64,000 nucleotides of DNA, taken from contig CAYLJX010000002.1 of the NCBI GenBank assembly GCA_964384235.1, positions 114,660 through 178,659 of the forward strand, written 5' to 3'. The position numbers were made by a program, and so were the translations under genes. Numbering within the stretch: position 1 is the stretch's first letter; each line of letters starts with the position of its first letter. The notes under the pieces were generated by a model, which searched no databases, was not told the DNA's origin, and worked only from the letters and a program-made list of their open reading frames with translations. The DNA comes from an uncultured Bdellovibrionales bacterium (GTDB lineage Bacteria; Patescibacteriota; Minisyncoccia; Moranbacterales; UBA1568). Positions 3,415 to 59,179 of this stretch are shown here, one piece after another.

Positions 3415-4467
3415 TTAGGCCTGGACTCTCCAGCGAACCACTCCGCCGGCCCGCAGGGGGATGACGACGTCGTTCCCGAAAGGGAGCTCTTCGGGGACTT
3501 TCTGGTCTTCGTGGACGAGCGTGATGGTGTCGGTATTGCGCGGCAGGCCGTAGAAGTCCGGTCCGAAGTGGCTTGCGAACCCTTCTAATTTGTCGAGCTT
3601 CCCGACCGAATCGAACGCTTCGGCGTAGAGTCCCATCGCCGTGTGAGCCGTGTAACAGCCGGCGCAACCGCAGGCAGATTCCTTGGCGCCTTTGGCATGG
3701 GGTGCCGAATCGGTGCCGAGGAAGAACTTCGGATTGCCCGAAGTGGCGGCCACGATGAGAGCTTGACGGTGAGAATCACGTTTCAGGATCGGCTTGCAGT
3801 ACAAATGCGGATTGATCCCGTCAGCGAGCAGGTTGTTCCGATTGGCAATCAGATGATGCGCCGTGATGGTAGCGGCCAATCTGTCGACATCTATCACGAA
3901 TTCCACTGCTTCTTGTGTCGTCACATGTTCCAGGACGATCTTCAGATTGGGGAAGTCGTTGATGAGGGGGCGGAGAACACGGTCGATGAAGACACGCTCA
4001 CGGTCGAAGACGTCCACGTTCGGACTGGTCACCTCGCCGTGGATGAGAAGCGGCATGCCGACTTCCTGCATCTTTTCCAGTACGGCACGGACCTTGCGGA
4101 TATCTGTCACGCCGCCGGCAGAGTTGGTCGTGGCGCCGGCCGGATAGAGCTTGACTGCATGCACGATGCCGCTCTTCTTGGCGAGGACGATCTCATCGGG
4201 CGACGTATTGTCGGTGAGGTAGAGAGTCATGAGCGGTTGGAAGTGATGACCCAAGTCGAGTCTCTTCACTTCGGCGCAGATCGCTTCGTAATACTCCCAT
4301 GCTTGTAGCACGGCCGTGACGGGTATCTTGAGGTTGGGCATGATGATGGCTCGGCCGAACACCCTTGCGGTGTCCGGGAGCACGGCAGCCATTGCGGCTC
4401 CGTAGCGCAGATGCAGATGCCAGTCGTCAGGACGGGTGATGGTGAGGCTATCGACTTTCATTTCCAT
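3415..4467 (-). CDS. pyrC: dihydroorotase (type II, E. coli PyrC-like)
   Basis: [10 protein letters not shown] metal-binding motif. 350 aa, full-length similarity pattern to class II dihydroorotases. Confidence 0.85.
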
Positions 4468-4579: not shown

Positions 4580-5638
4580 ATGAAAATAGCCGTGTTGGTA
4601 TCGGGCGGGGTGGACAGTTCGGTAGCTCTCCGACTCTTGAAGGACGAGGGTCACGAGCTCACCGCCTTTTACCTCAAAATCTGGCTGGAGGACGAATTGT
4701 CCTTCCTGGGCGAGTGCCCATGGGAGGAGGATTTGTCATACGTGCGGGCCGTGTGCGAGGAGGCCGGTGTGCCGCTCGAGGTCGTGCCGTTCCAAAAGGA
4801 GTACTGGGAGGAAGTAGTGGCCTACGTGATCGACGAGGTGCGATCCGGCCGGACGCCCAACCCGGACATGCTCTGTAATGCCCGGATCAAGTTCGGCGCT
4901 TTCTACGAAGCGTTCGGCAGGGACTACGATAAAGTGGCGACGGGGCATTATGCCTGGACAGAGGAGTACGACGGCAAAACGCTTTTGCGCGTGTCTCCCG
5001 ATCCCATCAAAGACCAGACGTATTTTCTTTCGCAGCTTTCACAGGAACAGGTGAGCAAGGCACTCTTTCCGATCGGGAAATATGAGAAGGGTGAGGTGCG
5101 GAAACTCGCCGAAAAGTATCATCTCCCCAACGCCAAACGAAAAGACAGTCAGGGTATCTGCTTCCTCGGTAAGATTCCCTTCGACAGGTTCCTCGAACAC
5201 CATCTGGGCAAGCGGCCGGGAAAGATCATTGAATACGAGACCAAGAAAGTCTTGGGCGAGCACGACGGTTTCTACTATTACACGGTCGGACAGCGGCGCG
5301 GCATCAGATTGTCAGGCGGGCCGTGGTACGTGGTAGGGAAAAATGCCGAGATGAACGAAGTCTACATCTCACACGGCGAGCACTACGCATTGTCTGCGCG
5401 TGATACGTTCGTGGTCGGAGGAGTGAATTGGATTTCAGGAACCGTACCGGAGAACAAAGATCTCATGGTCAAGGTTCGCCACGGTGCCAAGATGTATCCG
5501 GCGACGGTTGAGTTTCTGGAAAACGATAGGCTGAATATAACTTTAAAAGAAAAAGACCCGGGCGTTGCCGCGGGTCAGTTCGCCGTATTATACGACGGGG
5601 AGTATTGTCTTGGAGGGGGAACCATATTGGAAGGTTAA
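4580..5638 (+). CDS. mnmA: tRNA-specific 2-thiouridylase MnmA
   Basis: N-terminal PP-loop AVLVSGGVDSSVA, catalytic Cys region, typical 352-aa length. Confidence 0.85.
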   Translation: MKIAVLVSGGVDSSVALRLLKDEGHELTAFYLKIWLEDELSFLGECPWEEDLSYVRAVCEEAGVPLEVVPFQKEYWEEVVAYVIDEVRSGRTPNPDMLCNARIKFGAFYEAFGRDYDKVATGHYAWTEEYDGKTLLRVSPDPIKDQTYFLSQLSQEQVSKALFPIGKYEKGEVRKLAEKYHLPNAKRKDSQGICFLGKIPFDRFLEHHLGKRPGKIIEYETKKVLGEHDGFYYYTVGQRRGIRLSGGPWYVVGKNAEMNEVYISHGEHYALSARDTFVVGGVNWISGTVPENKDLMVKVRHGAKMYPATVEFLENDRLNITLKEKDPGVAAGQFAVLYDGEYCLGGGTILEG

Positions 5639-5702
5639 AACGGTTAACGGGTTACGAGTTAAAAAGTTAAAAACCTGTTAACCTGTGAACTTGTTAACTG
5701 GA
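5639..5702. repeat. GTTAAC-rich intergenic repeat (copy 1 of 4)
   Basis: aacggttaacgggttacgagttaaaaagttaaaaacctgttaacctgtgaacttgttaactgg. Shares the gttaac, aaaagttaaaa and gtgaac vocabulary with copies at about 21231, 45240 and 47756. Confidence 0.6.
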
Positions 5703-5720: not shown

Positions 5721-6710
5721 ATGTCAATCAGAGAAGAAAAAATCGAATTTTTTGAGAAGCACCTGCTCGACTTTTTCAAGAAGGCCGGGCGGGAACATTT
5801 GCCGTGGAGGAAGAAACAGATTACGGCGTACGAGGTGTGGGTGTCGGAGATCATGCTCCAGCAGACTCAAGTTGCGCGCGTCATCTCGTACTACGAGAAT
5901 TTTTTGAAGCGTTTCCCAACGGTCGAGGAGCTTGCGCAGGCGTCGTGGGAAGAATTTCTCCCGTACTACCAGGGTCTCGGCTACTATGCCCGCGGACGAA
6001 ACATGCTCAAGGCGGCACAGATGGTCGTAAAAGAGTACGATGGAAAATTTCCACGTGACAAGAAACTTCTCGAAAGCATTCCTGGTATCGGTCCCTACAC
6101 GGCCGCGGCCATCATGAGCTTCGCCTACGGTGACGACCATCTGGCGTGGGATACCAATCTTAAGCGGGTAACGGGCAGGTTCTTTTTTGGGAGCAAGGGT
6201 GCGCCGATAGATGAGGCAGAATGGGAAAACCGTCTGACGATAAAGAGGAAAACTCTCAACGCCGCGCTCATGGATTTCGGGAGCGCGATATGCGTCGCCC
6301 GGCCCAAGTGCGGAGCGTGTTCTCTTAAGGAGAAATGTATTTACTACAAGGAGAAAGGGAATCAAGAATCTAGAATCATGAATCAAGAATTAGGAAAAGA
6401 AAAAAATCCAAAAAAAAGAACAGATTGGAAAGAGGCGCGAGCAGTAGTTATCCTGCACGAGAATCATAAGAAGTACTACTCGTCAGTGAAAAAAGAATAC
6501 AAACCGTTCGTCCTTCCGAGCGGGTACAATACGCGCGCGGGTATCAAGAAATATTTCAAGGAGAAACATGGACTCGATCTCTCTGTTCGTCCGCCGCACA
6601 AAAAATCCGTCATCAAGGGAAAACCGACGCTCTTCGTGAACGCTCAGATTCTCCTTGGCGAGCCGAAATTCACTGTGTTCTCGAAAGAGATTTTGATGAG
6701 TGACGAGTAG
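5721..6710 (+). CDS. A/G-specific adenine DNA glycosylase (MutY-family HhH-GPD glycosylase) with a Lys-rich C-terminal extension
   Basis: LQQTQV, HhH-GPD region PGIGPYTAAAIMSFAYG, and 4Fe-4S cysteine cluster CxxxxxxCxxCxxxxxC. ATG at 5721 preferred over the GTG at 5685, which lies inside the repeat. Confidence 0.7.
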   Translation: MSIREEKIEFFEKHLLDFFKKAGREHLPWRKKQITAYEVWVSEIMLQQTQVARVISYYENFLKRFPTVEELAQASWEEFLPYYQGLGYYARGRNMLKAAQMVVKEYDGKFPRDKKLLESIPGIGPYTAAAIMSFAYGDDHLAWDTNLKRVTGRFFFGSKGAPIDEAEWENRLTIKRKTLNAALMDFGSAICVARPKCGACSLKEKCIYYKEKGNQESRIMNQELGKEKNPKKRTDWKEARAVVILHENHKKYYSSVKKEYKPFVLPSGYNTRAGIKKYFKEKHGLDLSVRPPHKKSVIKGKPTLFVNAQILLGEPKFTVFSKEILMSDE

Positions 6711-6784
6711 TGCTATACTTCAAGTAAAGGATTTTTCTGTCAGTAATTTTGACTTTTGCCTTTTGAATTTTGACTTTCTTTCCT

Positions 6785-22114: not shown

Positions 22115-22133
22115 TGTTCCGCGTATTAAAAAG

Positions 22134-22528
22134 TGGAGTTGATGGGAATCGCACCCATGTCCAGGCATGTTTTTCCAAAATAGTCTACAAGCTTAGTGTC
22201 GCTTGGCATGAAAGAGGAGGGTAGAAGCGGACGAAATCCCTCATCAGTCTCTTCTTCTGCAACAGGTCCTGAAAATGAAGAGAAGGAAGATTCTCAGGCT
22301 GCCTCGATGATATGGCACCGGATGACTCGTATCGAGAATAGGAGGTCCGATGGCTCACGCGATTAGGCGCGGGCAAAAGCGAAAGACGGAGCAAACGCCG
22401 AAGCGATCGCGGTCTTGGCCTTGGTGATGAAGTTTGCAGTTATCATCGTGGGAACGAGTTTTACGATCATGTTCCCGAGATCGGCTTGCGTATTTTGAAA
22501 GTACATCCTGTCGAGTCTAGACAACCCC
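22134..22528 (-). ncRNA. ssrA: tmRNA (SsrA)
   Basis: On the minus strand. 5' end GGGGUUGUCUAGACUCGACAGG (tRNA-like 5' half). 3' end ACAUGGGUGCGAUUCCCAUCAACUCCA: T-arm plus acceptor strand pairing with the 5' GGGGUUG, giving a G3:U70 pair. Internal candidate tag frame GCA AAC ... GCC TAA. Directly downstream of smpB on the same strand. Confidence 0.55.
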
Positions 22529-22707
22529 TTGGTCATTGCAATAGGCGTGTTGCCATTGTGATGACTGAGCGATAGTGTAGAATGCGGTTTTTCTTTTTGG
22601 ATTGCTCAAATTTTAAATTTCTAATTTCAAATTTCTAAACAAAACCGAATGACTGAATGTCTGAAACATTAAAAATTCGGACTTGATTCAAAATTCTGAA
22701 TTCAAAA

Positions 22708-23154
22708 TTAGAAATTCTTTAAAGCTCGCTCGATCTTTCGTTTCGCTTCACGCTTCCCGATGTCCGAGCGCTTGTCGTAGGCTTTTTTCCCCTTGCCCAC
22801 GGCAAACTCCAACTTGACGAGTTGTTTCTTAGTATACAGTCGAATGGGCACTAAAGTCAAGCCTTCGACGCGTGATTTTCCTATCAGAGAGCGGATTTCC
22901 CGACGACGGAGGAGGAGTTTTCTGGAACGAGTGTCTTCGTGCCTCGTGTCCCGGTGGGCATGTTGATAACGAGGGATGAGGGCATTGGTGAGGTAGAGTT
23001 CGCTTCCTTTGACCGTGACAAAGGCTCCTTTGAGGCTTGCATGTCCAGTTTTGACGGATTTTACCTCGGCTCCGGTCAATACCAAACCCGCCTCATATCG
23101 ATCAGAGAGGGCATAATCGAAACTCGCTCGTTTGTTGGTAGCAATGACTTTCAT
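22708..23154 (-). CDS. smpB: SsrA-binding protein SmpB
   Basis: MKVIATNKRASFDYALSDRYEAGLVLTGAEVKSVK... ATG at 23154 within ORF 22708..23268. Confidence 0.85.
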   Translation of the reverse strand: MKVIATNKRASFDYALSDRYEAGLVLTGAEVKSVKTGHASLKGAFVTVKGSELYLTNALIPRYQHAHRDTRHEDTRSRKLLLRRREIRSLIGKSRVEGLTLVPIRLYTKKQLVKLEFAVGKGKKAYDKRSDIGKREAKRKIERALKNF

Positions 23155-23274
23155 AGTATCTAGTATGTAGTATTGGGTATTTAGGGGGAAGGAGCAAGGG
23201 TGATTGACTTGATATGGGAAAAATAGTACTATACCAAGTCGAAGATCACTTCGACTCTTCTTTATCAACTCACC

Positions 23275-23791: not shown

Positions 23792-25414
23792 ATGAAGATT
23801 CTGATCGAGAAACAATTGAGAGAAGCGATACGGGCATTGCAGGAAACAGGGATACTTCCTGCTTTTGATGTTCCTGGAATCCGTGTGGAGCGGCCCAAGG
23901 ACGATCAGTTCGGGGAGTATACGACCAATGTCGCATTGATGATCTCGAAGCAGGCAGGAAAGAGCCCGAGGGAGATAGCGGAAAAAATCAGAGAACAGCT
24001 AACAGAGAACAGTGAGCAGAATACTCTTTTTGAGAAAGTGGAAGTCGCAGGGCCGGGACATCTGAATTTTTATCTGTCGCAGGAGGCGCTCACGAACGTC
24101 GTGCGGGAGGTTTTGGAAAAAGGAGGATCATTCGGTGATTCGAATATCGGCGTAGGGGAGAAAGTGAACAACGAATTTATTTCGGCCAATCCGACGGGAC
24201 CCTTGCATCTTGGCAATGGCCGTGGCGGATTTTATGCCGATTCACTCTCGCGCGTCTTGCGAAAGAGCGGCTATGACGTGACGAACGAATACTATATCAA
24301 CGACGCCGGCGAGCAGGTGATGAAACTGGGGCATAGTGTCTTAAAGGACAGCGAGGCAGTCTATGGCGGCGACTATATCGACGCGCTCAATGAACAGCTA
24401 ACAGCGAACAGTGAACAGAAAAACCTGAATGCGAAAGAAATTGGGGAGTGGGCGGCGGAGATCGTGATGGAGGAGATGGTCAAGAAGACACTCTCTGAAC
24501 AGATGGCTATCTCGTTTGATGTTTTCACGTCAGAGAAGAAGGATGTCGTGGAGAAAGGTTTCGTAGACAAGGCTATCGAGATTTTCAAAGAAAAAGGGCT
24601 AGCGTTCGAAGAAGAGGGGGCACTTTGGCTTCGTACCACCGAGTTCGGTGACGACAAGGACCGCGTGCTCGTGAAGCAAGACGGCTCTCGGACGTACTTC
24701 GCTTCCGACTGTGGATACATCTTGCAGAAAATAGAGCGTGACTTTACGAGACTCATCGAGACATGGGGCGCTGACCATCACGGCTATGTGGCGCGTTTCA
24801 AGGCAGCAGCACAGGCGCTCGGGTTTCAGGGGAAAATCGATTTCCTTCTTGTTCAGCTCGTGAAGCTCGTCAAGGACGGCGTCGAGGTGAGGATGAGCAA
24901 GCGTGCCGGCAACGTGGTGACGATCGACGAGCTCATCGAGACGGTCGGGCACGACGTGGCGCGGTTCTTTTTCCTTATGTACGCGCCGGAGACACATATG
25001 AACTTCGATCTCGGGCTCGCCGAGGAGCGCTCCGCCAAGAACCCGGTCTTCTACGTGCAGTATGCGCACGCGAGGCTCGCGAGTATTCTGCGCAAAGCCG
25101 AGGAGGAAGGATTCGTATCGGACGGCGCCGACCTCTCCCTTCTTATGCATCCCAAGGAGCGTGAACTCATGCGCGAGCTCCTCTTTTTTCCGGAACTCGT
25201 CGAGACAGTCTCGGAAGACTTTTCCGTGCACAAGCTGCCGCAGTATGCTATCCGTCTTGCCGACAAGCTCCATTCTTTCTATGATGAGTGTCGGGTGCTC
25301 GATGCCGAGAATCAGTCTCTCTCGGCGGCACGCCTCGAACTCATCCGTTCTGTCAAGATCGTCCTCGGTGAAACCCTCTCCCTCATGGGTATCGACGCCC
25401 CGGAGAGGATGTAA
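23792..25414 (+). CDS. argS: arginyl-tRNA synthetase
   Basis: ANPTGPLHLGNGRG (HIGH-class motif), class I ArgRS domain order, 540 aa. Confidence 0.9.
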   Translation: MKILIEKQLREAIRALQETGILPAFDVPGIRVERPKDDQFGEYTTNVALMISKQAGKSPREIAEKIREQLTENSEQNTLFEKVEVAGPGHLNFYLSQEALTNVVREVLEKGGSFGDSNIGVGEKVNNEFISANPTGPLHLGNGRGGFYADSLSRVLRKSGYDVTNEYYINDAGEQVMKLGHSVLKDSEAVYGGDYIDALNEQLTANSEQKNLNAKEIGEWAAEIVMEEMVKKTLSEQMAISFDVFTSEKKDVVEKGFVDKAIEIFKEKGLAFEEEGALWLRTTEFGDDKDRVLVKQDGSRTYFASDCGYILQKIERDFTRLIETWGADHHGYVARFKAAAQALGFQGKIDFLLVQLVKLVKDGVEVRMSKRAGNVVTIDELIETVGHDVARFFFLMYAPETHMNFDLGLAEERSAKNPVFYVQYAHARLASILRKAEEEGFVSDGADLSLLMHPKERELMRELLFFPELVETVSEDFSVHKLPQYAIRLADKLHSFYDECRVLDAENQSLSAARLELIRSVKIVLGETLSLMGIDAPERM

Positions 25415-26642: not shown

Positions 26643-26659
26643 GGTTGCTTTTTCTTTTG

Positions 26660-26940
26660 GCGGGTGATACAGTGGCGGTACAATATTTGAAAGGCGATGA
26701 AGGGATCATCCTCCTGGAGCTCCAAGAAGAAAGCCTTTGCGGCGAGTAGAACTTGGCGGGCACGCCCGTAACAGCCGGAATGAAGGGTATTTTGTATTAT
26801 GTATTTTGTATTATGTATTCCTTATACATAATACTTGATACCAGATACTTCATACCGAACTGAGGTGGTACCACGCTCCGACTCCTTATCGGTCGTTCAG
26901 CGTCCTTAGCACAGAGCGTGTTAAGGATTTTTTGTTTTTA
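26660..26940 (+). promoter_or_regulatory. candidate T-box riboswitch leader (Ile-specific) with intrinsic terminator, upstream of ileS
   Basis: T-box core match AGGUGGUACCACGC at about 26863-26876 (consensus AGGGUGGNACCGCG). Candidate specifier AUC-A at about 26704-26711. Downstream terminator ccttagcac-agagc-gtgttaagg plus T-run at about 26904-26939. The motif 3' half cacgctc can pair with gagcgtg inside the terminator. Confidence 0.4.
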
Positions 26941-26945: not shown

Positions 26946-29900
26946 ATGTCATTCAAAAAAGTTCCGTCGCAGGTGAGTTTTCCGAAATTGGAGGAGGAGG
27001 TCCTCAAGTATTGGGAGGAGAACAAGATCTTCGAGAAGTCGGTGGAGAAAAATCCCGAGGACAAGACGTTCATTTTTTACGAAGGGCCGCCGACGGCTAA
27101 TGGCAAGCCGGGACTTCATCATGTCCTCGCACGCTCGTTCAAGGACATCATCCCGCGCTACAAGACGATGAAAGGTTATCGTGTCGAGCGCAAGGCCGGC
27201 TGGGACACGCACGGGTTGCCGGTGGAACTCCAGGTGGAAAAAGCACTCGGCCTCAGGAACAAACAGGACATCGAGAATATCGTGCCGGGCGATGCGCGGG
27301 CGAGTGTCATCGAGTTCAACAAGAAGTGCAAGGAATCCGTGTGGGAGTACCGCGACCTCTGGGAGAAGCTCACGCGGCGCATGGGTTATTGGGTCGATAT
27401 GGAACACCCGTACGTGACGTACGAGAACGAATACATCGAGTCGGTGTGGTGGCAGCTCGCGCAGGTCGCGGCACTGAAAAACGAGAAAGGGGAATCTTAT
27501 CTCTACAAGGGACACAAAGTCGTTCCGTACTGCTACCGCTGCGGAACAGCGCTCTCCTCGCACGAGGTGGCGCAGGGGTATCAGACTGTGAAGGATAATT
27601 CAGTGTATGTGAAATTCCAGTTAACAGCGAACAGCGAACAGAAAACGGAAAACAAGACATATCTTTTGGCATGGACCACTACGCCTTGGACTTTACCAGG
27701 AAACGCGGCTTTAGCTGTAAAAAAAGATGAAGTCAAATATATAACACTTGAAACTGAAGCTGATACGTCAAATTTAAAAAAAGGCGATCAAGTAGTCTTT
27801 GCTTTTACCCATGAGATATTAGGACGTGTTTTAGGTGATAATTTTAAGGAATTTCATAAGAGTAACCATGATTTATTGAATGCTGTTCCTGAGGCATACG
27901 AAACAGAAACCGGTGTGAGATATAAAGTTATAGGATTATGTGATGGGAATGAATTGTTAGGAAAACTATACGAACCTCTTTACGAAACCACAGGAAAAGA
28001 TGCGGAGAAATGTTACAGAGTGGTGGCGGGGGATTTCGTCACGACGACCGATGGTACGGGGATCGTGCACATCGCGCCGGCGTTCGGTGAGGATGATGCC
28101 AACGTCGGCAAGGAGAACGGTCTGCCGACGCTCCTGACTGTAGAGACGGACGGAACGCTCATGAAAGGTTTCGGTCTGCCGGGTGAGGGGATTCCGGTCA
28201 AGAAAAAGAACGACAAGAACCGCTATGCCGTGGACGATCTCATCATCGAGGACCTGAAACAGCGAGGACTGTTTTTCAATGAAGAAGTGTATGAGCATGA
28301 GTACCCGTTCTGCTGGCGTTGTGACACGCCGCTTATCTACTTCGCCAAGCCGTCGTGGTTCATCCGAATGGGTGAGCTTCGGGACGAACTCGTAAAGAAC
28401 AACGAGAGTATCACCTGGGTGCCGGAACATATCAAGGAAGGGCGCTTCGGCGAGTGGTTGCGCGGCGTGAAGGATTGGGCCATCTCACGTGAACGTTACT
28501 GGGGTACGCCGCTTCCCATTTGGGAATGTGACACGTGTGATACACGGAAAGTGATTTCTTCGACTGACGAACTGACGAAATTTTCCGGTAAGAAACTCGA
28601 AGATGTGCATAAGCCGTACATTGATGATGTGACGTGGTCATGCGAATGCGGTGGTACGATGAAACGGACGCCGGAAGTGCTCGACGTGTGGTTCGATTCC
28701 GGCGCGATGCCCTTGGCGCAGTTTACCTATCCGGAGCAGTCCGATGCGGTGGTCAAGGAAAAAATCGAATCCGGGAAATATTTCCCGGCGGACTATATCT
28801 GCGAGGCGATCGACCAGACGAGAGGGTGGTTCTATACGCTCCATGCCATCGCGACGCTTCTCAATAAGGCCGGGAAAGTGCCGGTAGGCAACGCCTACAA
28901 GAACGTCATCTGTCTCGGGCACGTGCTCGACGCGCAGGGCAAAAAGATGTCCAAGTCCAAGGGGAATGTCATCGATCCGTTCCAGATGTTTGAGGAATAC
29001 GGTGCCGATCCCTTGCGCTGGATGCTCTTCTCGATCAATCAGCCGGGACTACCGAAGCGTTTCGACGTGAAGGGGATGCGCGACGTGCAGAACCGCGTGT
29101 TCCGTATGCTCTGGAACTCGTACTCGTTCTTCATGACGTATGCGGCAATCGACGGTTGGCAGCCAAAAGCTACAAGCCACAAGCCACAAGCTACAAGCTT
29201 GCTCGACCGATGGATCGTTTCGGAATTACAGATGCTTATTAGGGGGGTCGATGGATCGCTTGCTGCTTATGATGTCTATACACCGACCAAGAAGATCGAG
29301 GTGTTCATTGATAATCTCTCCAATTGGTACATCCGTCGGAGCCGCGACCGCTTCTGGAAATCAGATGATGATACTGACAAGAACCAGGCATATCAGACGC
29401 TCTATGATGTGCTCGTGACGCTCTCGAAATTGATGGCCCCGTTCACGCCGTTCGTCGCCGAAGAAATCTATAGGGGATTAACAGGAAAAGAGTCCGTACA
29501 TCTCGCAGACTGGCCGGAGGCGGATGAAAAATTGATTGATGAAAACCTGAATGAAGAGATGCAACACGCCAGATTTATTGTGACGATGGGATTGAAAGTC
29601 CGCGCCGATGAAAAAATTAAAGTTCGTCAGCCACTTCAGAAAATAACAGCACGCCCGCTTGAGAAGGAACTGCAAGGAATTGTGTTGGATGAACTGAATG
29701 TGAAGGAATATGTCGAGCGTAAGGAAATGAACGAACTAGTTGAACTTGATCTGACTCCCAATGATGATCTTAGACTCGAGGGTGAGATGAATGAGATCAA
29801 CCGGGCAATCCAGGATGGCCGCAAGAAGGCGGAGTTTAATGTGGAGGACCGGATCGTACTCGGCTATCAGGGAAAGGAGGAAGTTTTTGAGAAGTTCGGT

Positions 29901-34491: not shown

Positions 34492-35610
34492 ATGTGGGAA
34501 GAACAAGGAAGAACAGGAACCAAGCGTTACGGAATGTTGAAAACGAGGGGAGGAGTGATACCCACTCCTTTTTTCATGCCGGATGCGACGAGGGCGTCGG
34601 TGCGGGGACTTTCCAAGGACGATCTGAACACGGTCGGCGTATGGCCGATGGTGGTGAATACGTACCATCTCATGCTTCAGCCGGGCGTTGAATTGATCAA
34701 ACAAGCGGGAGGCACGCATCGTTTCATGAACTCTGACGGACCGCTCCTCTCTGATTCCGGCGGGTACCAGGTCTACTCGCTCATTCACAAGAATCCGGAA
34801 CTGGGAAAGATCACCGAAGAGGGGGCGGAGTTTCGCTCGCCTCTTGATGGTCGCAAGCATCTCCTGACGCCGGAGCGTTCCATCGGGATCCAGTTCGATC
34901 TCGGCGTCGACATGATGGTCTGTCTCGATGACCCGCGCCCCAATGATGCGCCACGGGAAGAGATCGTGGCCGCGGTGGACCGTACGATCCGCTGGGCGAA
35001 GCGGTGCAAGGAAGAGTACGACAGACAAGTGGTCGCGCGCGGAATGAATGATGAGGCAAGACCGCTCCTCTTCGGTGTGGTACAGGGCGGGATGCTCGTG
35101 GAAGAACGGAAGCGCTGTGCCGAGGGGCTGGTCGCGATCGGTTTCGACGGGTACGGTTTCGGTGGTCGGCATGTGGACGGTGACGGCCGATTTCTCGAGG
35201 AGATCGTCAGGGAGACCGCGTCGTTCATCCCGGAAGACAAACCGCGTTTCGCGCTCGGGGTCGGGACGCCTCAGGATATCGTGCGCTGCCATGCGCTCGG
35301 ATGGGACATGTTTGACTGCGTCATCCCCACCCGTGAAGGAAGACACGGCCGTTTGTTCGTGTTTAACCCACAAGCTACCAGCTACCAGCTACAAGCTGAT
35401 TTCTACGAAACGATCAATATCACGAACGAACAGTACAAGGATGACTTCGCGCCGGTGGATGCAGCATGCGATTGTCTCCTGTGTACGAAATACACCAAAG
35501 CGTATCTCAAACATCTTTTCAAAGTAGCTGACCCGCTCGCCGGCCGTCTCGCTTCGATGCACAACTTGCGCTTCTATATGAAGCTGATGGAAAAACTCCG
35601 GGAGGAGTAA
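34492..35610 (+). CDS. tgt: queuine tRNA-ribosyltransferase
   Basis: LGVGTPQDIVRCHALGWDMFDCVIPTREGRHG and C-terminal Zn site CDCLLC...H. Confidence 0.85.
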   Translation: MWEEQGRTGTKRYGMLKTRGGVIPTPFFMPDATRASVRGLSKDDLNTVGVWPMVVNTYHLMLQPGVELIKQAGGTHRFMNSDGPLLSDSGGYQVYSLIHKNPELGKITEEGAEFRSPLDGRKHLLTPERSIGIQFDLGVDMMVCLDDPRPNDAPREEIVAAVDRTIRWAKRCKEEYDRQVVARGMNDEARPLLFGVVQGGMLVEERKRCAEGLVAIGFDGYGFGGRHVDGDGRFLEEIVRETASFIPEDKPRFALGVGTPQDIVRCHALGWDMFDCVIPTREGRHGRLFVFNPQATSYQLQADFYETINITNEQYKDDFAPVDAACDCLLCTKYTKAYLKHLFKVADPLAGRLASMHNLRFYMKLMEKLREE

Positions 35611-37686: not shown

Positions 37687-37783
37687 AAAGTAGAACCACC
37701 ACTCGTCCGAAAAAATCGGACAACGTAGATTAGATTTTCAGATATACCTGATACATACTACGTAATACATAATACTGACGGGA

Positions 37784-41098: not shown

Positions 41099-42556
41099 AT
41101 GGAAAATACCGAAAATAAGCCAGCCCGCATCGCTACGCGAAGCGTTGCTGGCGGGCCATTTTTTATTACGACACCCATCTATTACGTGAACGGGCGGCCC
41201 CATATCGGCCATGCCTATACGACCGTGGCGGCGGACTGTCTCGCTCGGTTCAAACGTCTTCAGGGGGAAGAAATCTTCTTCTCGACGGGAACGGACGAGC
41301 ACGGGATGAAGATACAGAAAAAGGCCGAGGAAGAAGGGAAAGAGACAAGTGTCTTCGTCGACGGGATCGCGGAAACGTTCCGAGACCTCTGGGAGAAACT
41401 CGGTATCAGCTATACGCGGTTCATCCGCACGACCGAGCCGGCACACAAGGCAGCGGTACAAAAGGTGCTCCAGGATTTCTATGACCGTGGCATCATCTAC
41501 AAGGGTTTTTACGAGGGACTCTACTGCGCCGGCTGCGAACAGTTCAAGATCGCGGACGATCTGGTCGATGGCAAGTGTCCCGACCATGGCACCGTTCCGG
41601 AGCTCATGAAAGAGGAGAGCTACGTCATGAAGATGACCGTCATGCAGGACGAGCTCATCCGAAGAATCGAGCAGGACGAGCTGTATGTCGCACCGGAGAA
41701 ATACAAGACGGAAATATTGTCTTTCCTCAAAGGCGAACGGCTCGAGGATATCTCCATCTCACGCAAGAACGTCCGGTGGGGGATACCGCTTCCTTTCGAT
41801 GGGACGCATACGACGTACGTGTGGGTGGACGCTTTCCTTAATTACCTCACGGTGCTCGGTTGGGACGGGAACAGGGAGAGCGTTCCGCGAGAGTGGCCGG
41901 CCGACGTGCAGTTCATCGGCAAGGATATCCTCCGCGTGCATGCCACCATCTGGCCGGTGATTCTCATGCACCTCGGGTTCCCCACGCAGAAAGTCCTCTT
42001 CACGCACGGATTCATCCTCTCCGGTGGCAAGAAGATGAGCAAGACCCTCGGGAACGTCATCTCACCCGACGAGATGATCGAGCGCTTCGGTGCCGACGGG
42101 ACGAGGTACCTCCTCATGAGTGCCGGACGTTTCGGTGAGGATATCGATTTGACGCTTGAGCGCGCGACGGAGAAATACAACGCCGACCTCGCGAACGGTC
42201 TCGGCAACCTGGTTTCGCGCGTGATGAAGCTCGCGGAGAGTTCATCGAACGTAAGCTATCCGCTCGTCACGGGATGGCCTGAGGAGTTCGTCCTGTATAT
42301 GGGCGCGTGCTCCCTGTATGAGGCGCTCGAATCCGTGATGGACCGGGTGCGCGCCATGAACAAGAAGATCGACGACGCCAAACCATGGGTCTTAGTGAAA
42401 GAAGACAAACCGAAATTCGAGGAAGTCATGAACGGGTTCCTCGCCGAACTCAACGAACTCTCGTTCCTGCTGCAGCCGTTCCTCCCGGAAACCGCCCAAA
42501 AAATCCAAACCGCCCTCACGGAAGGCAAAACCGAACCACTTTTTAAGAGAATCTAG
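41099..42556 (+). CDS. metG: methionyl-tRNA synthetase
   Basis: PIYYVNGRPHIGHAYT (HIGH), KMSKTLGN, Zn-knuckle CAGCEQF...CPDHG. Confidence 0.9.
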   Translation: MENTENKPARIATRSVAGGPFFITTPIYYVNGRPHIGHAYTTVAADCLARFKRLQGEEIFFSTGTDEHGMKIQKKAEEEGKETSVFVDGIAETFRDLWEKLGISYTRFIRTTEPAHKAAVQKVLQDFYDRGIIYKGFYEGLYCAGCEQFKIADDLVDGKCPDHGTVPELMKEESYVMKMTVMQDELIRRIEQDELYVAPEKYKTEILSFLKGERLEDISISRKNVRWGIPLPFDGTHTTYVWVDAFLNYLTVLGWDGNRESVPREWPADVQFIGKDILRVHATIWPVILMHLGFPTQKVLFTHGFILSGGKKMSKTLGNVISPDEMIERFGADGTRYLLMSAGRFGEDIDLTLERATEKYNADLANGLGNLVSRVMKLAESSSNVSYPLVTGWPEEFVLYMGACSLYEALESVMDRVRAMNKKIDDAKPWVLVKEDKPKFEEVMNGFLAELNELSFLLQPFLPETAQKIQTALTEGKTEPLFKRI

Positions 42557-42560: not shown

Positions 42561-42656
42561 ATGTAGAAAGTATCATGTAGTATGTATCATGTATGGGATA
42601 GAATGCGTGATACCGAATACAAGATACTTGATACATAATACGATATACATAATACG
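42561..42656. repeat. GTAT/ATAC-rich intergenic repeat (one of six copies)
   Basis: catgtagaaagtatcatgtagtatgtatcatgtatgggatagaatgcgtgataccgaatacaagatacttgatacataatacgatatacataatacg. Shares TACATAATAC / GTATTATGTA and GATACCGAATAC modules with copies at about 23156, 26789, 37741, 48755 and 57118. Confidence 0.55.
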
Positions 42657-44860: not shown

Positions 44861-44930
44861 AAAAGAAGTCAAAAGTCAAAGGTGAAAAGTCAAAAGTCCA
44901 AGTCGAAATTCAAAAGTTTGAATTGAAAAA
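44861..44930. repeat. AAAGTC(A/C) direct-repeat tract between atpB and atpE
   Basis: aaaaagaagtcaaaagtcaaaggtgaaaagtcaaaagtccaagtcgaaattcaaaagtttgaattg. Related tracts at about 6746-6778 (inverted), 16921-16950 and 19571-19600. Confidence 0.5.
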
Positions 44931-45239: not shown

Positions 45240-45312
45240 TATCCGGTTAAAAAGTTAAAAGGTTAACAGGTTTAGGAATCCAAACCCGTTAACTCGTTAA
45301 CCTGCAACTGTC
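45240..45312. repeat. GTTAAC-rich intergenic repeat (copy 3), between atpE and atpF
   Basis: atccggttaaaaagttaaaaggttaacaggtttaggaatccaaacccgttaactcgttaacctgcaactg. Confidence 0.55.
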
Positions 45313-45325
45313 TAACTGAATCATC

Positions 45326-47833: not shown

Positions 47834-48754
47834 ATGGCTTCAGCTCGTGACATCCGACGGCGAATAAAGGGCGTGAAATCCACCGGCAAGATCACCCGGG
47901 CGATGGAGATGATTTCGGCCGTCAAGATGCGCAAGGCCGTGAGTTCGGTGCTCGCCATCCGTCCGTATGCCCAAGGGGCGATTGGGATGCTTCAGCGGCT
48001 TTCCCAGGCGGTCGGCAATGAACAGCATCCGCTTCTCATGGAACGACCGGTAAAGAAAGAACTCTACGTCGTCATCGCCTCCAATCGAGGTCTCTGCGGC
48101 GCGTTCAACGCCCAGATCGGGAAGCGTCTGCGCCAGGTCCTCCTCGAGGATACCGGTCGGGACCGGGTCTTCATTACGATCGGGAAGAAGGCAGACGCCA
48201 TGGTGCGTCGTGTCCAGGGAGAAACCATCGCGTCGTTTCCGGACGTGCTCAACGCCCTCAAGGCGGAGGACCTTCGGCCGGTGGCGCGCGTCATCATGGA
48301 CGAGTTCGAGGCGAAACGCGTCGACCGCGTGGTGATGGTGTACACGGATTTCGTCTCGATGCTCTCGCAGGAGGTGAAGGTCCGGGCGCTCCTCCCGGTC
48401 GCGATCAAGGACACGAGGAAGGCCTTGAACGAAATGGGAGAAATGAGTGAAAAGGGAGAAACGGGAGACGAAAAAGGGAAGGGCGGCATGCAAGCCGAGT
48501 ATCTGATCGAGCCGAGTGCCAAGAAGGTATTGTGGCGGATGATTCCGCGGCTCATCGAGATGGAACTCTATCATGCCGTTCTCGAGAGCAACGCCTCGCA
48601 GGAGTCGGCCCGGATGATGGCCATGCGCAACGCGACCGACGCCGCCAAGGAAATGGTGGCCGACCTCACGCTCGCCTACAACCAGGTCCGTCAGGGCAAG
48701 ATCACGCAGGAAATCGCCGAGCTCTCGGCGGGTATGGCGGCTGTCTCGAAATAG
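47834..48754 (+). CDS. atpG: ATP synthase F1 gamma subunit
   Basis: MASARDIRRRIKGVKSTGKITRAMEMISAVKMRKA N-terminus and conserved C-terminal helix. Confidence 0.85.
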   Translation: MASARDIRRRIKGVKSTGKITRAMEMISAVKMRKAVSSVLAIRPYAQGAIGMLQRLSQAVGNEQHPLLMERPVKKELYVVIASNRGLCGAFNAQIGKRLRQVLLEDTGRDRVFITIGKKADAMVRRVQGETIASFPDVLNALKAEDLRPVARVIMDEFEAKRVDRVVMVYTDFVSMLSQEVKVRALLPVAIKDTRKALNEMGEMSEKGETGDEKGKGGMQAEYLIEPSAKKVLWRMIPRLIEMELYHAVLESNASQESARMMAMRNATDAAKEMVADLTLAYNQVRQGKITQEIAELSAGMAAVSK

Positions 48755-48903
48755 TATTCAGTATTTCGTATATCGTATGGCGTATTCCGGTACGTGATGC
48801 GAGATACCAGATACCGAATCTGGAAGGAATTTTAAAAAAGCACGCAGAAATGATTCAAGACAGTCCGCGTTGCGAACTGTCTTGTCGAGAGGGGTGGCCG
48901 TGG

Positions 48904-49125
48904 TCAATCCTGCTTCATGGAGGGCGATGGCAATAAGACCAGGGCGATGGCTGTGGCCAGCATCAGCGCGAAGAACGCCATGTTGAGCGGGACCGGATAC
49001 ATCGGCTGATGACTCACCCAGAGCATGGGCGCGTAGGTCCACAGGAAGCTGACACCGAAAAGAACCAGGAGAATGCAGGCGATCCAGAGGACTACCCGGA
49101 AGAGTTTGAACATGATGATCTCCAA
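48904..49125 (-). CDS. small two-TM membrane protein (73 aa) encoded antisense between atpG and atpD
   Basis: GGAG RBS 6 nt before the ATG. Two hydrophobic helices. Own hairpin terminator caagacag...ctgtcttg at about 48856-48884 followed by a U-run on the minus strand. Confidence 0.4.
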   Translation of the reverse strand: MEIIMFKLFRVVLWIACILLVLFGVSFLWTYAPMLWVSHQPMYPVPLNMAFFALMLATAIALVLLPSPSMKQD

Positions 49126-53193: not shown

Positions 53194-55632
53194 ATGTCCA
53201 AGTCGTACAACCCCAAGTCCATCGAGGGAAAATGGCAGAAAACATGGGAGAAACAAGGTATCTATCGGCAATACAAGCGGTCGAAAAAGTTCTACGTGCT
53301 CGATATGTTTCCCTATCCGTCGGGCGCAGGGCTCCATGTCGGCCATCCCAAGGGTTACATCGCGACGGACGTGGTAGCACGAATGAAACAACTGCAGGGC
53401 TACGGCGTGCTCCATCCGATGGGATGGGATGCGTTCGGATTGCCGGCGGAGCAGTTCGCCATCAAGAACAAGGTCCATCCGGAAATCGCCGTGAGAAAGA
53501 ACGTCGCGACGTTCAAGAAACAGCTCGCGAAGATCGGTTTCACATACGACTGGGAGCGCGAGATCAACACGACCGACCCGGAGTACTACCGGTGGACGCA
53601 GTGGATCTTTCTCCAACTCTGGAAGAAAGGACTGGCCTACGAGTCATACGATCCGATCAACTGGTGTCCGTCGTGCCAGACGGGACTCGCGAACGAGGAT
53701 CTGGAGCAGGGGAAGTGCGAGCGCTGTGCCAGTGTCGTCGAGAAGAAACCGATGCGACAGTGGGTGCTCGCGATGACCAGGTACGCTGACCGGCTGCTCA
53801 AGGACCTGGATACGCAGAAACTCGAGTGGAGCGAATCGATCAAGGAACAGCAGCGCAACTGGATCGGACGGAGCGAAGGGATGCTTTTTACGTCGCCGAT
53901 CAAGGATAGTGACCTGAAGATCCAGACATTCAGTGCTCATTTTGAAGCATTTCGTGCCGACACATTCGTAGTGATTGCCCCTGATCATCCGATGCTTCCG
54001 AAGCTGCTTGATGGCGTAAAGGACAAGGAAAAAATCCTTCAAGTCTGTTCCGAGATGATCAGGAAACGCGAAGCGGCAGGATATGAGAATCAGAAGGAGA
54101 TCGAAGGGGTATTTACCGGACGACACACGGTGGATCCGGTCGGAAACGGAGAGCTTCCTATCTGGGTAGCGAGCTATGCTTTGGCTGAATATGGTACGGG
54201 TATCGTGAAGTGCTCAGCACACGATGAGCGTGATTTCGCTTTCGCGAAGAAATACGGGATCCGATTGAAACCGGTATTGTTTCCGGAAGATCTGATAGAA
54301 AGGAAAAAAGTCGAGAATCTGGAATATTGCTACAGTGATATGTCGCAGGGGGTTCTGACGGAGCCGGTGGAGTTCAATGGGAAAAAATCAGGCGAGTCCC
54401 GGCAGGAGATTATAGGGTATCTTGCGAAGAATAAGCTTGCCGCAAAGAAAGTCTCCTACAAGATGCGTGACTGGACGTTCTCGCGGCAGCGATACTGGGG
54501 CGAGCCGATTCCGCTCATTTATTGTGAGAAGTGCGGAGTCGTGCCGGTGCCGGAAAAGGATCTACCGGTGCTCCTTCCGAAGGTGAAATCGTATGAGCCG
54601 ACAGGGACGGGAGAATCGCCGCTTGCCAACATCACCAAGTGGGTGAATGTACGGTGTCCGAAGTGCAAGGGCAAGGCTAAGCGAGAAACGAATACCATGC
54701 CGCAGTGGGCGGGGTCCTGCTGGTACTACCTGCGCTACATCGATCCCAAGAGCCGGAAAGCGCTCGTCGACAAGAAGTTAGAGAAGAAGATGATGCCGGT
54801 CGACGTCTATGTCGGCGGGACGGAGCATGCCACGAGGCACCTCCTCTATGCGCGTTTTTGGCACAAATTCCTCTATGATATCAAGGCGGTTTCCGGCAAG
54901 GAGCCTTTCAAGAAGCTCGTTAATCAGGGACTCATCCTTGCTTCCGACGGGCGCAAGATGTCTAAGCGCTGGGGGAATGTCATCAATCCTGACGATATGA
55001 TCGATCAGTTCGGCGCGGACGCATTCCGACTTTATGAGATGTTCATGGGACCGTTCACACAATCGATCGCGTGGAATACGGACGGTGTGGTGGGAACACG
55101 CAGATTTCTGGAGAAGGTGTGGAAACTTCGGGATCGAATATCGAATATCGAATATCGAATATCGAATAAAGATACGGAAACCCTCCTTCACAAGACTATC
55201 AAGAGTGTTACCGAAGATATTGAGGACTTCAAATTCAATACCGCGGTCAGCAGTCTGATGATCTTGGTGAATGCCCTGGAAAAAGAAACCAATATTTCAC
55301 ATTCTACATTCAATATTCTTCTTATCCTTCTCTCTCCGTTTGCGCCGCATATCGCGGAGGAACTCTGGTATGAAATGGGGAACAAGAAGTCCATCTTTCT
55401 TGCCGAGTGGCCGAAGTGGGATAAGCGAAAAATCGTCGCCGAGACGGTGAAGATCGCCGTGCAGGTAAATGGCAAGGTGCGTGCGACGGTCGAGGTGGAA
55501 AGCGGAGCGACAGAAGAGGTAGTGAAAGCGCTCGCGCTCGCCGATACGAACGTCCAAGCGCACGTGGCCGGCAAAGAAATCCGCAAAGCGATCTATGTCC
55601 CCGGGAGAATACTGAATCTGGTGGTTATGTGA
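53194..55632 (+). CDS. leuS: leucyl-tRNA synthetase
   Basis: FPYPSGAGLHVGHPKGY (HIGH), KMSKRWGN, CP1 editing domain, 812 aa. Confidence 0.9.
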   Translation: MSKSYNPKSIEGKWQKTWEKQGIYRQYKRSKKFYVLDMFPYPSGAGLHVGHPKGYIATDVVARMKQLQGYGVLHPMGWDAFGLPAEQFAIKNKVHPEIAVRKNVATFKKQLAKIGFTYDWEREINTTDPEYYRWTQWIFLQLWKKGLAYESYDPINWCPSCQTGLANEDLEQGKCERCASVVEKKPMRQWVLAMTRYADRLLKDLDTQKLEWSESIKEQQRNWIGRSEGMLFTSPIKDSDLKIQTFSAHFEAFRADTFVVIAPDHPMLPKLLDGVKDKEKILQVCSEMIRKREAAGYENQKEIEGVFTGRHTVDPVGNGELPIWVASYALAEYGTGIVKCSAHDERDFAFAKKYGIRLKPVLFPEDLIERKKVENLEYCYSDMSQGVLTEPVEFNGKKSGESRQEIIGYLAKNKLAAKKVSYKMRDWTFSRQRYWGEPIPLIYCEKCGVVPVPEKDLPVLLPKVKSYEPTGTGESPLANITKWVNVRCPKCKGKAKRETNTMPQWAGSCWYYLRYIDPKSRKALVDKKLEKKMMPVDVYVGGTEHATRHLLYARFWHKFLYDIKAVSGKEPFKKLVNQGLILASDGRKMSKRWGNVINPDDMIDQFGADAFRLYEMFMGPFTQSIAWNTDGVVGTRRFLEKVWKLRDRISNIEYRISNKDTETLLHKTIKSVTEDIEDFKFNTAVSSLMILVNALEKETNISHSTFNILLILLSPFAPHIAEELWYEMGNKKSIFLAEWPKWDKRKIVAETVKIAVQVNGKVRATVEVESGATEEVVKALALADTNVQAHVAGKEIRKAIYVPGRILNLVVM

Positions 55633-55707
55633 GACAGAGAAACGGAAAGGAATTATCCCCGTTTCTTTTCCGGATTCAAAATTCTATATTCGATATTCTA
55701 TTCATAT

Positions 55708-56415
55708 ATGCAAGCAGTGATACTGGCGGCAGGACGAGGGACACGGATGGGGACATTGACCGACGAGATTCCCAAACCGATGCTTCCGCTTTTCGACAAA
55801 CCGATGCTCGAGTGGAAACTGGAGATGCTTCCTGGTGACATCGACGAAGTGGTGTTGGTGGTCGGCTATCTCGGTGAAACGGTCCGAGAATACTTCGGTG
55901 ACCAATGGAAGAGCCGTAAGATCCGGTATGTCGAGCAGAAAGAGCTTAACGGAACGGGCGGAGCGATTCTTCTGACACGCGATCTCGTACGGGGGAAGTT
56001 TCTCGTCACGATGGGAGACGATCTCTATACCCGCGAGGATCTGGAAGCGCTTGGACGTCATGATCTCTCGGTGCTCGCCTATCGTACCGACGAGGCCGAG
56101 CACTACGGACTTCTGGATACGGATGAAACAGGCAACCTCGCGAGCGTCATCGAGCGGCCGCACGATCGGACGGAAGGATTCGTCAACGCGGCGGCCTATA
56201 TCCTCGATGGGCGGATATTCAGCGAACCGCTGGTGCGGATCAGTGAGAAGGAACACGGTCTCCCACAGATGCTCGTCGAACTCGGCAAGAAATATCCGGT
56301 GAAAGTCGTCGTGACGGAGAGGTGGCAGCCGGTCGGCAAGCCGGAGGATATCGCTTTGGGGGAAGAGTTTCTGCGAAAACACTGGATACATGACAGCGGC
56401 GATGAGATTGGATAG
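55708..56415 (+). CDS. sugar-phosphate nucleotidyltransferase (NTP-transferase domain)
   Basis: AVILAAGRGTRMG...PKPMLP signature. Confidence 0.7.
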   Translation: MQAVILAAGRGTRMGTLTDEIPKPMLPLFDKPMLEWKLEMLPGDIDEVVLVVGYLGETVREYFGDQWKSRKIRYVEQKELNGTGGAILLTRDLVRGKFLVTMGDDLYTREDLEALGRHDLSVLAYRTDEAEHYGLLDTDETGNLASVIERPHDRTEGFVNAAAYILDGRIFSEPLVRISEKEHGLPQMLVELGKKYPVKVVVTERWQPVGKPEDIALGEEFLRKHWIHDSGDEIG

Positions 56416-56439
56416 AATAGATAAGAGACCAAATCGCTT

Positions 56440-57117: not shown

Positions 57118-57225
57118 CGTATCTAGTATCTAGTATCTTGTATTATGTATTGGGTATGATATATTGAATTTTTTTTCCATACATAATACAAAATACATAC
57201 TACATAATACATACTCCTTACTACG

Positions 57226-59047: not shown

Positions 59048-59179
59048 ATCCAAAAAACACTGATTGATAATCGTTCGTCAATGGAATATAATAGCAATGA
59101 GCGGTTAGCGTCTAGCGATAAGTTTTTTGCTACCCGCTTTTAACTGAGTGCTGCACGCTCGACGCTGAACGCTGTTTTT

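Follow-up and report, generated by a model that had tools for sequence, protein, structure and literature searches.

Seven-nucleotide-periodic GTAT/ATAC repeats in the gene spacers and a putative ileS leader of a Patescibacteria genome

Intergenic heptanucleotide repeats have been known since 1990 and an excess of them in bacterial genomes since 2007, and to our knowledge neither the repeats nor the excess has so far been explained. The named units of the STRR (short tandemly repeated repetitive) elements (CCCCAGT, TTGGTCA and CAACAGT) are not of the GTAT type, and an STRR array is said, in the title of a report of 1997 from Vioque as listed in PMC2858038, to lie in an RNase P RNA gene, reportedly inside a helix. 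Here we describe repeats with a GTAT/ATAC core at six loci of a 64,000-nucleotide stretch of DNA (hereafter the window; contig CAYLJX010000002.1 of assembly GCA_964384235.1, positions 114,660 to 178,659 of the forward strand) from an uncultured bacterium of the Moranbacterales (Patescibacteriota), which we read, with evenly balanced confidence, as one family of short palindromic insertion-type repeats, similar to REP, RPE and STRR elements and transcribed passively. Several described systems are close to it. In cyanobacteria, STRR arrays in inverted arrangement are able to fold into hairpins that separate co-transcribed genes, for instance hupS and hupL (PMC2670836). Rickettsia palindromic elements (RPE) are present in multiple copies in a reduced genome, both in spacers and in frame within unrelated conserved genes, where they contribute a peptide at tolerant positions (PMC10969869), and REPs are imperfect palindromes of 20-40 bp of which one end bears a single tag, GTAG or CGTC (PMC3733652). 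The TAACTGA repeats of Beggiatoaceae, cyanobacteria and Bacteroidetes are heptamer direct repeats in two to six copies (MacGregor, 2015; PMC4679880), while the (GGGANTN)n repeats of Xanthomonas are heterogeneous intergenic heptads with conserved and free positions, mostly of about four units and in some cases inverted (PMC4692102).

An earlier note on this DNA, made from the letters alone, had pointed to six repeat loci, and reading all six regions confirmed both their presence and their coordinates. Each locus is a strictly 7-nt-periodic array of the form (GTATNNN)n and/or (ATACNNN)n, in which a plus-strand GTAT, or the complementary ATAC, returns at intervals of exactly 7 nt, four to seven times in all, the three bases between the cores being free. 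Where both occur, the ATAC array stands to the right of the GTAT array, which makes the two arms inverted repeats of each other. The note had distinguished two types of unit; the repeat is indeed present, but both types are facets of a single 7-nt GTAT/ATAC core rule. The arms, in window coordinates, are the following.

23156 to 23180, minus strand: single arm of four units (GTAT four times on the plus strand), reading ATACCCA, ATACTAC, ATACTAG and ATAC and ending 1 nt before the smpB ATG (23154-23152).
26787 to 26818, plus strand: left arm of five GTAT units, the 5' half of a hairpin at the stem III position of the putative ileS T-box leader.
26824 to 26858, plus strand: right arm of five ATAC units with their tails, the 3' half of the stem III hairpin, whose loop is 26819-26823.
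37744 to 37778, plus strand: single arm of five ATAC units, the third being CTAC, in the spacer between glyS and an M16 peptidase gene, ending 8 nt before the ATG at 37784.
42563 to 42594, plus strand: left arm of five units (GTAG, GTAT, GTAG, GTAT, GTAT), beginning 6 nt past the metG stop codon (42554-42556).
42610 to 42655, plus strand: right arm of seven ATAC units, ending 1 nt before the tatD ATG at 42657.
48754 to 48785, plus strand: left arm of five GTAT units, its first G being the last base of the atpG stop codon.
48790 to 48817, plus strand: degenerate right arm (GTAC, ATGC, ATAC, ATAC), facing the 3' end of a small minus-strand membrane ORF (48904-49113).
57119 to 57157, plus strand: left arm of six GTAT units, 43 nt upstream of the minus-strand gene 55702-57075.
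57179 to 57214, plus strand: right arm of five to six ATAC units, one of them CTAC, ending 11 nt before the uppP ATG at 57226.

Plain AT-rich composition, which the earlier note had named as what would refute the observation, is ruled out, since ATACNNNATACNNNATAC with at most one mismatch matches the window 35 times on both strands against 0.03 times expected from dinucleotide-preserving shuffles; the motif is therefore specific, and all but one of the matches fall inside the six loci. Over 46 units the core positions carry 1.5-2.0 bits of information and the tail positions 0.1-0.5 bits. Adjacent tails are 46% identical against 34% after permutation (p = 0.007), which is a signature of local duplication. 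A scan of the window for tetramers of any sequence that recur four times with constant spacing gave 47 matches at period 7 and 0-3 at periods 5, 6 and 8-12. A full copy consists of about five GTATNNN units, an A/T-rich loop of 0-35 nt and about five NNNATAC units, always in this order, with half copies also existing, and what copies retain is the 4-nt cores and the 7-nt spacing alone as the 3-nt tails drift.

The copy at 26787-26858 stands apart from the others in that it appears to be embedded in a structured RNA leader.

26688 to 26940, plus strand: T-box-like leader of ileS, host of the 26787 copy, with AUC in a short stem I, the GGTGGTACCACG box and a terminator at 26902-26938.

A consensus scan places a promoter (TTGGCG-16-TACAAT) at 26657-26684, before this leader, and the Rfam model RF00230 matches 26688-26910 with 37 bits (E = 8e-7 in a 401-nt search), which is under its gathering score of 93; in the RF00230 alignment the heptads form a large insertion at the stem III position. 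IleS homologues assign the window to Candidatus Moranbacteria (Moraniibacteriota), within the Patescibacteria, and for comparison we used four syntenic Moranbacteria loci (L124, L125, L126 and L127; IleS identities of 81, 77, 71 and 67% to the window). The same leader, with its -10 box, AUC in a short stem I, GGTGGTACCACG and terminator, is found in L124, L125 and L126, all three of which have a short ordinary hairpin where the window has the 72-nt heptad hairpin. The alignment indicates that the heptad copy replaces the dispensable stem III of this putative ileS T-box leader, and the predicted promoter, T-box match and terminator indicate that it is transcribed with it. Among Rfam families, only this sub-threshold T-box match and spurious matches to miRNA precursors were obtained, the latter caused by the hairpin. 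In L125 the leader precedes an extra ORF upstream of ileS. The short-stem-I ileS leader may be a Patescibacteria variant of the T-box that the current Rfam model misses.

Protein-family scans of the flanking ORFs supplied the gene names around the six loci, and at five of them a gene end or an intra-operon spacer adjoins the copy. The 42563/42610 pair occupies the metG-tatD spacer, and the 57119/57179 pair lies between a divergent gene of no assigned family and uppP. The suggestion that most copies stand immediately before a start codon holds at four of the six loci and breaks down for the 48754 copy, which faces the 3' end of a convergent ORF and so precedes no start. This ORF encodes a hydrophobic protein of 69 aa on the minus strand (48904-49113) and has a GGAG ribosome-binding site; it lies between atpG and atpD, thereby splitting the ATP synthase operon, and a hairpin is found at about 48858-48884, at its 3' end. 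The 23156 copy, supposed to be upstream of the gene at 23275, in fact faces the minus-strand smpB, and the 23275 gene has a promoter of its own (TTGACT-17-TACTAT, 23204-23232) between the gene and the 23156 arm. Directly downstream of smpB (22708-23154), on the minus strand, is a tmRNA gene (22131-22528; Rfam, 107 bits) that ARAGORN did not report, an arrangement kept in all four relatives. Sense ATAC arms are found near starts that lack a Shine-Dalgarno sequence, at a distance of 1 nt in smpB and tatD, 8 nt in the M16 gene and 11 nt in uppP. Across L124-L127 and the window, Shine-Dalgarno motifs precede a minority of genes only, indicating weak use across the clade, and many starts have (T/C)CT directly before the ATG (e.g., ttctATG, tcctATG, acctATG).

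Copies were not found in the orthologous spacers of the four relatives, with the exception of remnants at smpB, a gene preceded in L127 by a degenerate array of ATAC heptads, in L125 by a single unit and in the other relatives by none. The glyS-M16 spacer measures 2-20 nt in the relatives, and three further assemblies carry, in identical form, the 37744 array that fills it in the window. The relatives have 1-3 period-7 regions in 22-23 kb, whereas the 64-kb window has 25. The copies are thus lineage-specific, and their absence from the orthologous sites of the relatives means that they are young on the scale of the clade and are not conserved regulatory sites. Their proximity to start codons can be explained by the element filling a spacer that is just 2-20 nt long in relatives. 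Copies sit in the few places where a compact genome tolerates 70-100 extra bases, namely in very short spacers and in a stem of the putative ileS leader, and they touch stop and start codons because it is very short spacers that they fill.

Two larger samples were used to derive the rules of the element: species-representative genomes scanned for five ATAC heptads (at least 120 loci) and metagenomes searched with the pattern GTAT four times, a gap and ATAC four times (at least 120 pairs). Together they supplied about 240 further loci, and the counts that follow are from among the matches listed. Many of the genome matches belong to Patescibacteria, Chloroflexota, Bacteroidota and cyanobacteria, and a viral collection gave no match in either arm order. 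In the 120 listed genome loci, period-7 arrays numbered 241 versus 0, 3, 15 and 4 arrays at periods 5, 6, 8 and 9, respectively, and about half of the 241 have cores other than ATAC. The GTAT arm precedes the ATAC arm in 17 + 120 listed pairs and the reverse order was seen in none. Heterogeneous GTAT/ATAC arrays have five units in 206 cases and six in 16, and arrays with other cores, which the search pattern did not select, have five units in 52 cases and six in three, whereas perfect heptamer microsatellites at the same loci show a smooth range up to 20-50 units. Where a sixth unit would stand, similarity to the core is about as frequent as expected by chance, whereas a degenerate fifth unit is present in 45% of the four-unit arrays. 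The loops of the listed pairs are 0-35 nt long and A/T-rich, with no preferred length or register and no conserved motif in loop or flank. In-register complementarity of the tails between arms is 48% versus 33% after permutation (z of about 14, 138 pairs). In 130 pairs, neither target-site duplication nor extension of the stem into the flanks exceeded a shuffled control; a MITE was rejected on the absence of flanking direct repeats above that control and because copies share their cores only. Inverted five-plus-five heptad pairs with other cores occur in L043 (5860-5927, GATTGCA/AAATCTK) and L154 (4247-4333, ATTAGNN/CTAATNN), so the five-plus-five architecture is not tied to GTAT.

The gene contexts of the metagenome pairs, where fully defined, are co-directional in 40 cases, convergent in 11 and divergent in 3, and the genome loci agree (11-13 convergent versus 3-5 divergent contexts across related loci); a gene end is included in 51 of the 54. 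Stop codons lie 0-11 nt from one arm of a pair and start codons 0-13 nt from the other. Single arrays stand 0-15 nt before an ATG in 14 of 67 cases when AUAC is in the sense strand versus 3 of 72 when it is GUAU (p = 0.0035). Lone GTAT arms near stop codons show a trend only (15 of 67 versus 8 of 72, p = 0.11), which becomes significant with pairs included. Both strand biases are expected because the arm order is fixed and the element fills a once-tiny spacer, and a function at the start codon is not needed to account for them. The genes downstream, named by eye from translations in 24 cases, are unrelated to one another (secY, miaB, prfA, ruvX, tsaD, fabD, rpiB, tatD, parB, lgt, msrA, cysS and others), and a regulon was rejected on this ground.

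Copies are also found inside proteins. In 28 of 129 evaluable pairs some frame remains free of stop codons over 120 nt or more to either side, although some of these frames are spurious antisense ORFs. Real in-frame copies, all in other Patescibacteria, lie inside the A24 domain of the prepilin peptidase PilD, in the N-terminal arm of SerRS, in the linker between transketolase domains and in the linker of a GT4 glycosyltransferase, and two further candidates resemble UvrA and FtsK, by eye only. The heptads dictate the encoded peptide, which reads V-S-S-I-K-Y-Q ... N-T-K-Y-x-I-P. Two orthologous PilD genes, with flanks 65-73% identical, each carry a 5+5 copy with a 14-nt loop. In the window there is no GTAT-type copy inside an ORF, other heptad families alone being found there.

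The filling of spacers, the replacement of a T-box stem and the in-frame copies in proteins argue that the arrays are neither promoters nor regulator sites, both of which the earlier note had proposed together with a REP-like family. A shared promoter or UP-like element is not supported, as a sigma-70 consensus scan of two regions found no -35/-10 pair inside the arrays (canonical pairs were found at 23204-23232, 26657-26684 and 41089-41061) and copies lie in a leader and between convergent genes. Binding sites of a regulator are contradicted by the 7-bp period, which is not the helical repeat, by the absence of copies from the orthologous spacers of relatives and by the unrelated housekeeping genes that flank them. 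The REP-like suggestion came closest to the evidence: a multi-copy palindrome in transcribed spacers and at gene 3' ends is what we see, but the size, the GTAG tag and a RAYT gene in the window are not. No terminator-like site coincides with an array in the scanned regions, where the same scan does find the terminator of the T-box leader, and an intrinsic terminator was rejected accordingly.

A narrower promoter hypothesis is that the arrays are tandem -10-like elements of leaderless or short-leader mRNAs, in which nATACT would resemble TATAAT at A2 and T6 and the last unit would stand 5-7 nt before the ATG. Array ends do cluster 0-1 and 6-8 nt from the ATG, T follows ATAC in six of six cases at the 7-nt distance and is also the most frequent base at the first tail position across genomes (45%), and smpB and the M16 gene have CATACT or AATACT 7 nt before the ATG. 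We nevertheless consider such a function very unlikely, since the T-box copy lies within a transcript, 11-13 pairs are convergent and further copies are inside ORFs, the GTAT arms of co-directional pairs face gene 3' ends, A is as frequent as T after ATAC in the window, no TANNNT peak is seen at -12/-13 upstream of 101 gene starts of the clade, and canonical TTGACT-17-TA...T promoters exist elsewhere in the window. Lowest of all in our estimate are operator arrays for a regulator or nucleoid protein that binds double-stranded DNA, with the arms as symmetric half-sites. These would agree with the symmetric 5+5 architecture and its variable spacer, with the conservation of the cores and with the lack of a G.U excess among arm mismatches, which is consistent with symmetry at the level of DNA. 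However, cores that follow one another at 7 bp lie on different faces of the DNA helix, loop lengths range over 0-35 nt with neither a favoured value nor a favoured register, there is no regulon, orthologous sites in relatives are not conserved, and copies occur inside ORFs.

As RNA, the four pairs of the window fold with -22 to -28 kcal/mol (z = -3.1 to -6.2) into core helices of 4-5 bp separated by small internal loops, the 26787/26824 hairpin having -26.1 kcal/mol (z = -6.2) and the 48754/48790 hairpin -27.9 kcal/mol (z = -4.3). Lone ATAC arms are unstructured (-1.6 kcal/mol and z = +1.6 for the tatD arm), and the M16 and smpB leaders are computed to be open around the start codon. In the metG-tatD fold the left arm, with its five units, is base-paired to the beginning of the right arm, which has seven, so that the last three or four units of the latter are unpaired and about 30 nt are free before the AUG. 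A pair would thus be present in RNA as a long bulged hairpin, with 4-5-bp helices split by 3x3 internal loops, forming an intercistronic or 3'-terminal stem-loop; a lone AUAC arm would provide a G-poor, structure-free leader before a start codon without a Shine-Dalgarno sequence; and an in-gene copy would add an extra surface peptide. It is as such a bulged hairpin and structure-free leader that the copies would act, if they act at all, and the computed hairpin together with the unstructured lone arm suggests effects like those of REP, RPE and STRR elements; such roles have been proposed for STRR hairpins (PMC2670836) and for REPs (PMC3733652). Copies in the window other than the one in the T-box leader are probably transcribed passively with their host genes. 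They may have arisen by local 7-nt duplication combined with inverted duplication, or by a single-strand- or hairpin-dependent insertion without target duplication.

Several observations weigh against the reading of the copies as passively transcribed, insertion-type repeats. Passive passengers should decay, yet the cores are almost invariant beside near-saturated tails. In the orthologous PilD pair 40 of 40 core bases are the same, codon third positions included, against differences at 9 of 24 tail positions and throughout most of the loop, which suggests either selection on the sequence itself or a maintenance process that passive insertion does not include. Copies in one genome share no tails, in which they differ from those of classical mobile elements; neither a transposase nor an HUH nuclease nor a reverse transcriptase turned up among the approximately 50 ORFs of the window, and target-site duplications are absent. 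Arm mismatches on the sense strand are G.U in 69 cases and A.C in 57, a difference that is not significant, and selection for an RNA hairpin is thus not demonstrated. Finally, the sharp limit of five units is not accounted for by passive insertion.

Some of these points bear equally on ordinary heptanucleotide microsatellites generated by neutral replication slippage. Slippage would explain the excess specific to period 7 (47 versus 0-3 matches in the window and 241 versus 0-15 in the 120 listed loci), the existence of several families, some of them inside ORFs, and the greater likeness of adjacent than of random tails, and heptamer simple sequence repeats are over-represented in many bacteria according to a passage in PMC4692102 that cites Mrazek (2007). 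We regard this explanation as improbable, given that neutral decay is incompatible with cores about 96% identical beside near-saturated tails, that heterogeneous arrays end at five units where perfect ones in the same loci reach 20-50, that more than 130 pairs all have the same arm order, and that orthologues keep their 5+5 cores across flanks of 65-73% identity. The retention of the cores, the five-unit limit, the fixed polarity and the sharing of one rule by unrelated cores argue against plain slippage, and the same features leave room for a factor that reads the cores or for a synthesis that templates them. A tentative proposal, to which we attach a rather low probability, is that the arrays are undescribed 'counted' repeats, composed of five units of a 4-nt core and three free bases per arm in fixed polarity, which a core-reading or core-templating mechanism writes or keeps in Patescibacteria, Chloroflexota, Bacteroidota and cyanobacteria. 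The writer would be a stuttering, microhomology-realigning or short-template polymerase that makes arrays de novo; alternatively, a nucleic-acid-binding factor with five periodic sites would select them.

The 7-nt period is shared in the window by arrays with other cores (GAATC, TTTTGAC, AATTT, ATTC, AACAG, AGCYAC, ATCGAAT and an AGCG/CGCT inverted pair), which are found at the following positions.

6359-6390, 6747-6772, 22609-22635, 22686-22716, 44862-44925, 55674-55698 and 59100-59173: other 7-nt arrays, with cores differing from GTAT/ATAC.
23994-24012, 24393-24418, 27623-27641, 29167-29198, 35373-35397, 55133-55168 and 55301-55318: heptad arrays in genes, lying twice in ArgRS, twice in IleS, once in TGT and twice in LeuRS.

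GAATCNN runs across the start of ORF 6378, and TTTTGNN, AATTTNN and ATTCNNN are among the others. An AAGTCAA array lies between atpB and atpE, an AGCG/ACGCT inverted pair between tRNA-Leu and parA, and an AATTT array between smpB and the tmRNA gene, the last of which is present in L125 too (3786-3812). Within genes, AACAG is found in IleS and twice in ArgRS, AGCYAC in IleS and TGT, and (ATCGAAT)5 in LeuRS, in the linker between the catalytic and anticodon-binding domains. The arrays in IleS, ArgRS and TGT fall in loops whose length varies among the aligned relatives and encode peptides such as QLTANSEQK and KATSHKPQATS. Repeats with a GTTAA(C) core, a period of about 8-9 nt and inverted units are also present, upstream of ORF 5685 (5633-5684) and between atpE and atpF (45244-45318).

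The variety of these cores is relevant to a further explanation. HutP recognises UAG triplets spaced at 7 nt and TRAP recognises repeats of GAG/UAG, and by analogy the copies could be a platform for a periodic RNA- or single-stranded-DNA-binding factor with about five equivalent sites (an oligomeric ring or a multi-domain OB-fold or KH protein) that would take up one 4-nt core per 7 nt and control translation or mRNA fate near starts. Such a factor would account for conservation confined to the cores with free spacers, for the sharp maximum at five units, for the placement of AUAC on one strand before ATG codons, for the cores kept at synonymous positions in the orthologous PilD copies and for smpB, tatD, M16 and uppP lacking a Shine-Dalgarno sequence next to arrays; S1, Csp or CsrA has been proposed for the similar TAACTGA repeats (PMC4679880). 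In our judgement such a platform is unlikely, because GAATC, AACAG, AGCYAC, TTTTGAC and AGCG, with dozens of cores elsewhere, obey the same rule of 7 nt and at most five units, so that many specificities would be required in genomes of about 1 Mb. In addition, copies lie in coding regions and between convergent genes, and the strand bias can be derived from the fixed arm order and the filling of spacers.

Set against the described systems, the element resembles STRR sequences in its 7-nt unit, in the several unit families per genome and in the dispersed, mostly intergenic copies, and the STRR array said by title to lie in an RNase P RNA gene has a parallel in the T-box stem III copy of the window. 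It differs in that STRR units are near-perfect and variable in copy number, whereas here four of seven positions are kept and arrays stop at five units, and also in its fixed arm order and its host, a Patescibacterium. With RPE it shares a behaviour rather than membership by sequence, as GTAT/ATAC copies lie in frame in PilD, SerRS, transketolase and a GT4 enzyme, in addition to the T-box stem III; RPE are about 100-150 bp long with a full-length consensus and no 7-nt substructure, while here only the cores are shared. Like REP and BIME sequences, the copies are high-copy extragenic palindromes that occupy transcribed operon spacers and the 3' ends of genes but seldom the space between divergent genes, with stem-loops in mRNA, a conserved tetranucleotide and no target duplication. 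In contrast to the G+C-rich stems of REPs, however, they are 70-100 bp long, A+T-rich and bulged, with about five GTAT per arm and no conserved tag in the flank, and neither a RAYT nor an HUH transposase gene was found among the approximately 50 ORFs of the window.

The TAACTGA repeats are similar in standing, in forward orientation, a few nt from starts without a canonical ribosome-binding site, upstream of unrelated genes and with a patchy phylogeny, but conservation there extends over the whole heptamer and inverted pairs hardly occur (one indirect repeat), whereas here conservation is limited to the core and inverted pairs are usual. The Xanthomonas (GGGANTN)n repeats likewise differ in length and sequence between close species, but they are G-rich and quadruplex-capable, and neither a fixed arm order nor copies in ORFs were reported there. 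TIGR arrays were rejected, having a different period and different motifs; the present copies are 7-nt-periodic and dispersed beside housekeeping genes, and no Nop-domain ORF was seen in the window. The element therefore departs from each named family in the sequence-level features that were compared and resembles them in position and in tolerance of its insertion. We found no description of GTAT-core 5+5 pairs, of a five-unit limit or of such elements in Patescibacteria, although this is weak evidence, as subscription journals were mostly outside the search.

Two other features of the window are worth recording. A SET-domain protein of 161 aa is encoded at 2281-2766 (Pfam E = 3e-25), which seems unusual for a small Patescibacteria genome. 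The parA and parB genes adjoin tRNA-Leu (59180-60932) and the plus strand has more G than C across the whole window, which may lie near the replication origin.

What the present data add to the long-known heptanucleotide repeats is a set of testable rules: four of seven positions are constrained, heterogeneous arrays end at five units, only one arm order occurs and there is no target duplication. They also provide natural experiments, in the form of a copy that would serve as stem III of a T-box and of in-frame copies in essential proteins with cores intact at synonymous sites. For genome annotation, such elements confound both the motif-based prediction of promoters and regulons and the calling of gene starts. 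If a dedicated writer or reader of the cores exists, the rules define a precise substrate for finding it, and repeats that are counted in this way would reshape spacers, RNA stems and protein linkers. Patescibacteria genomes are thought to be minimal, and in them these elements would be a lineage-specific source of spacer sequence, RNA stems and linker peptides.

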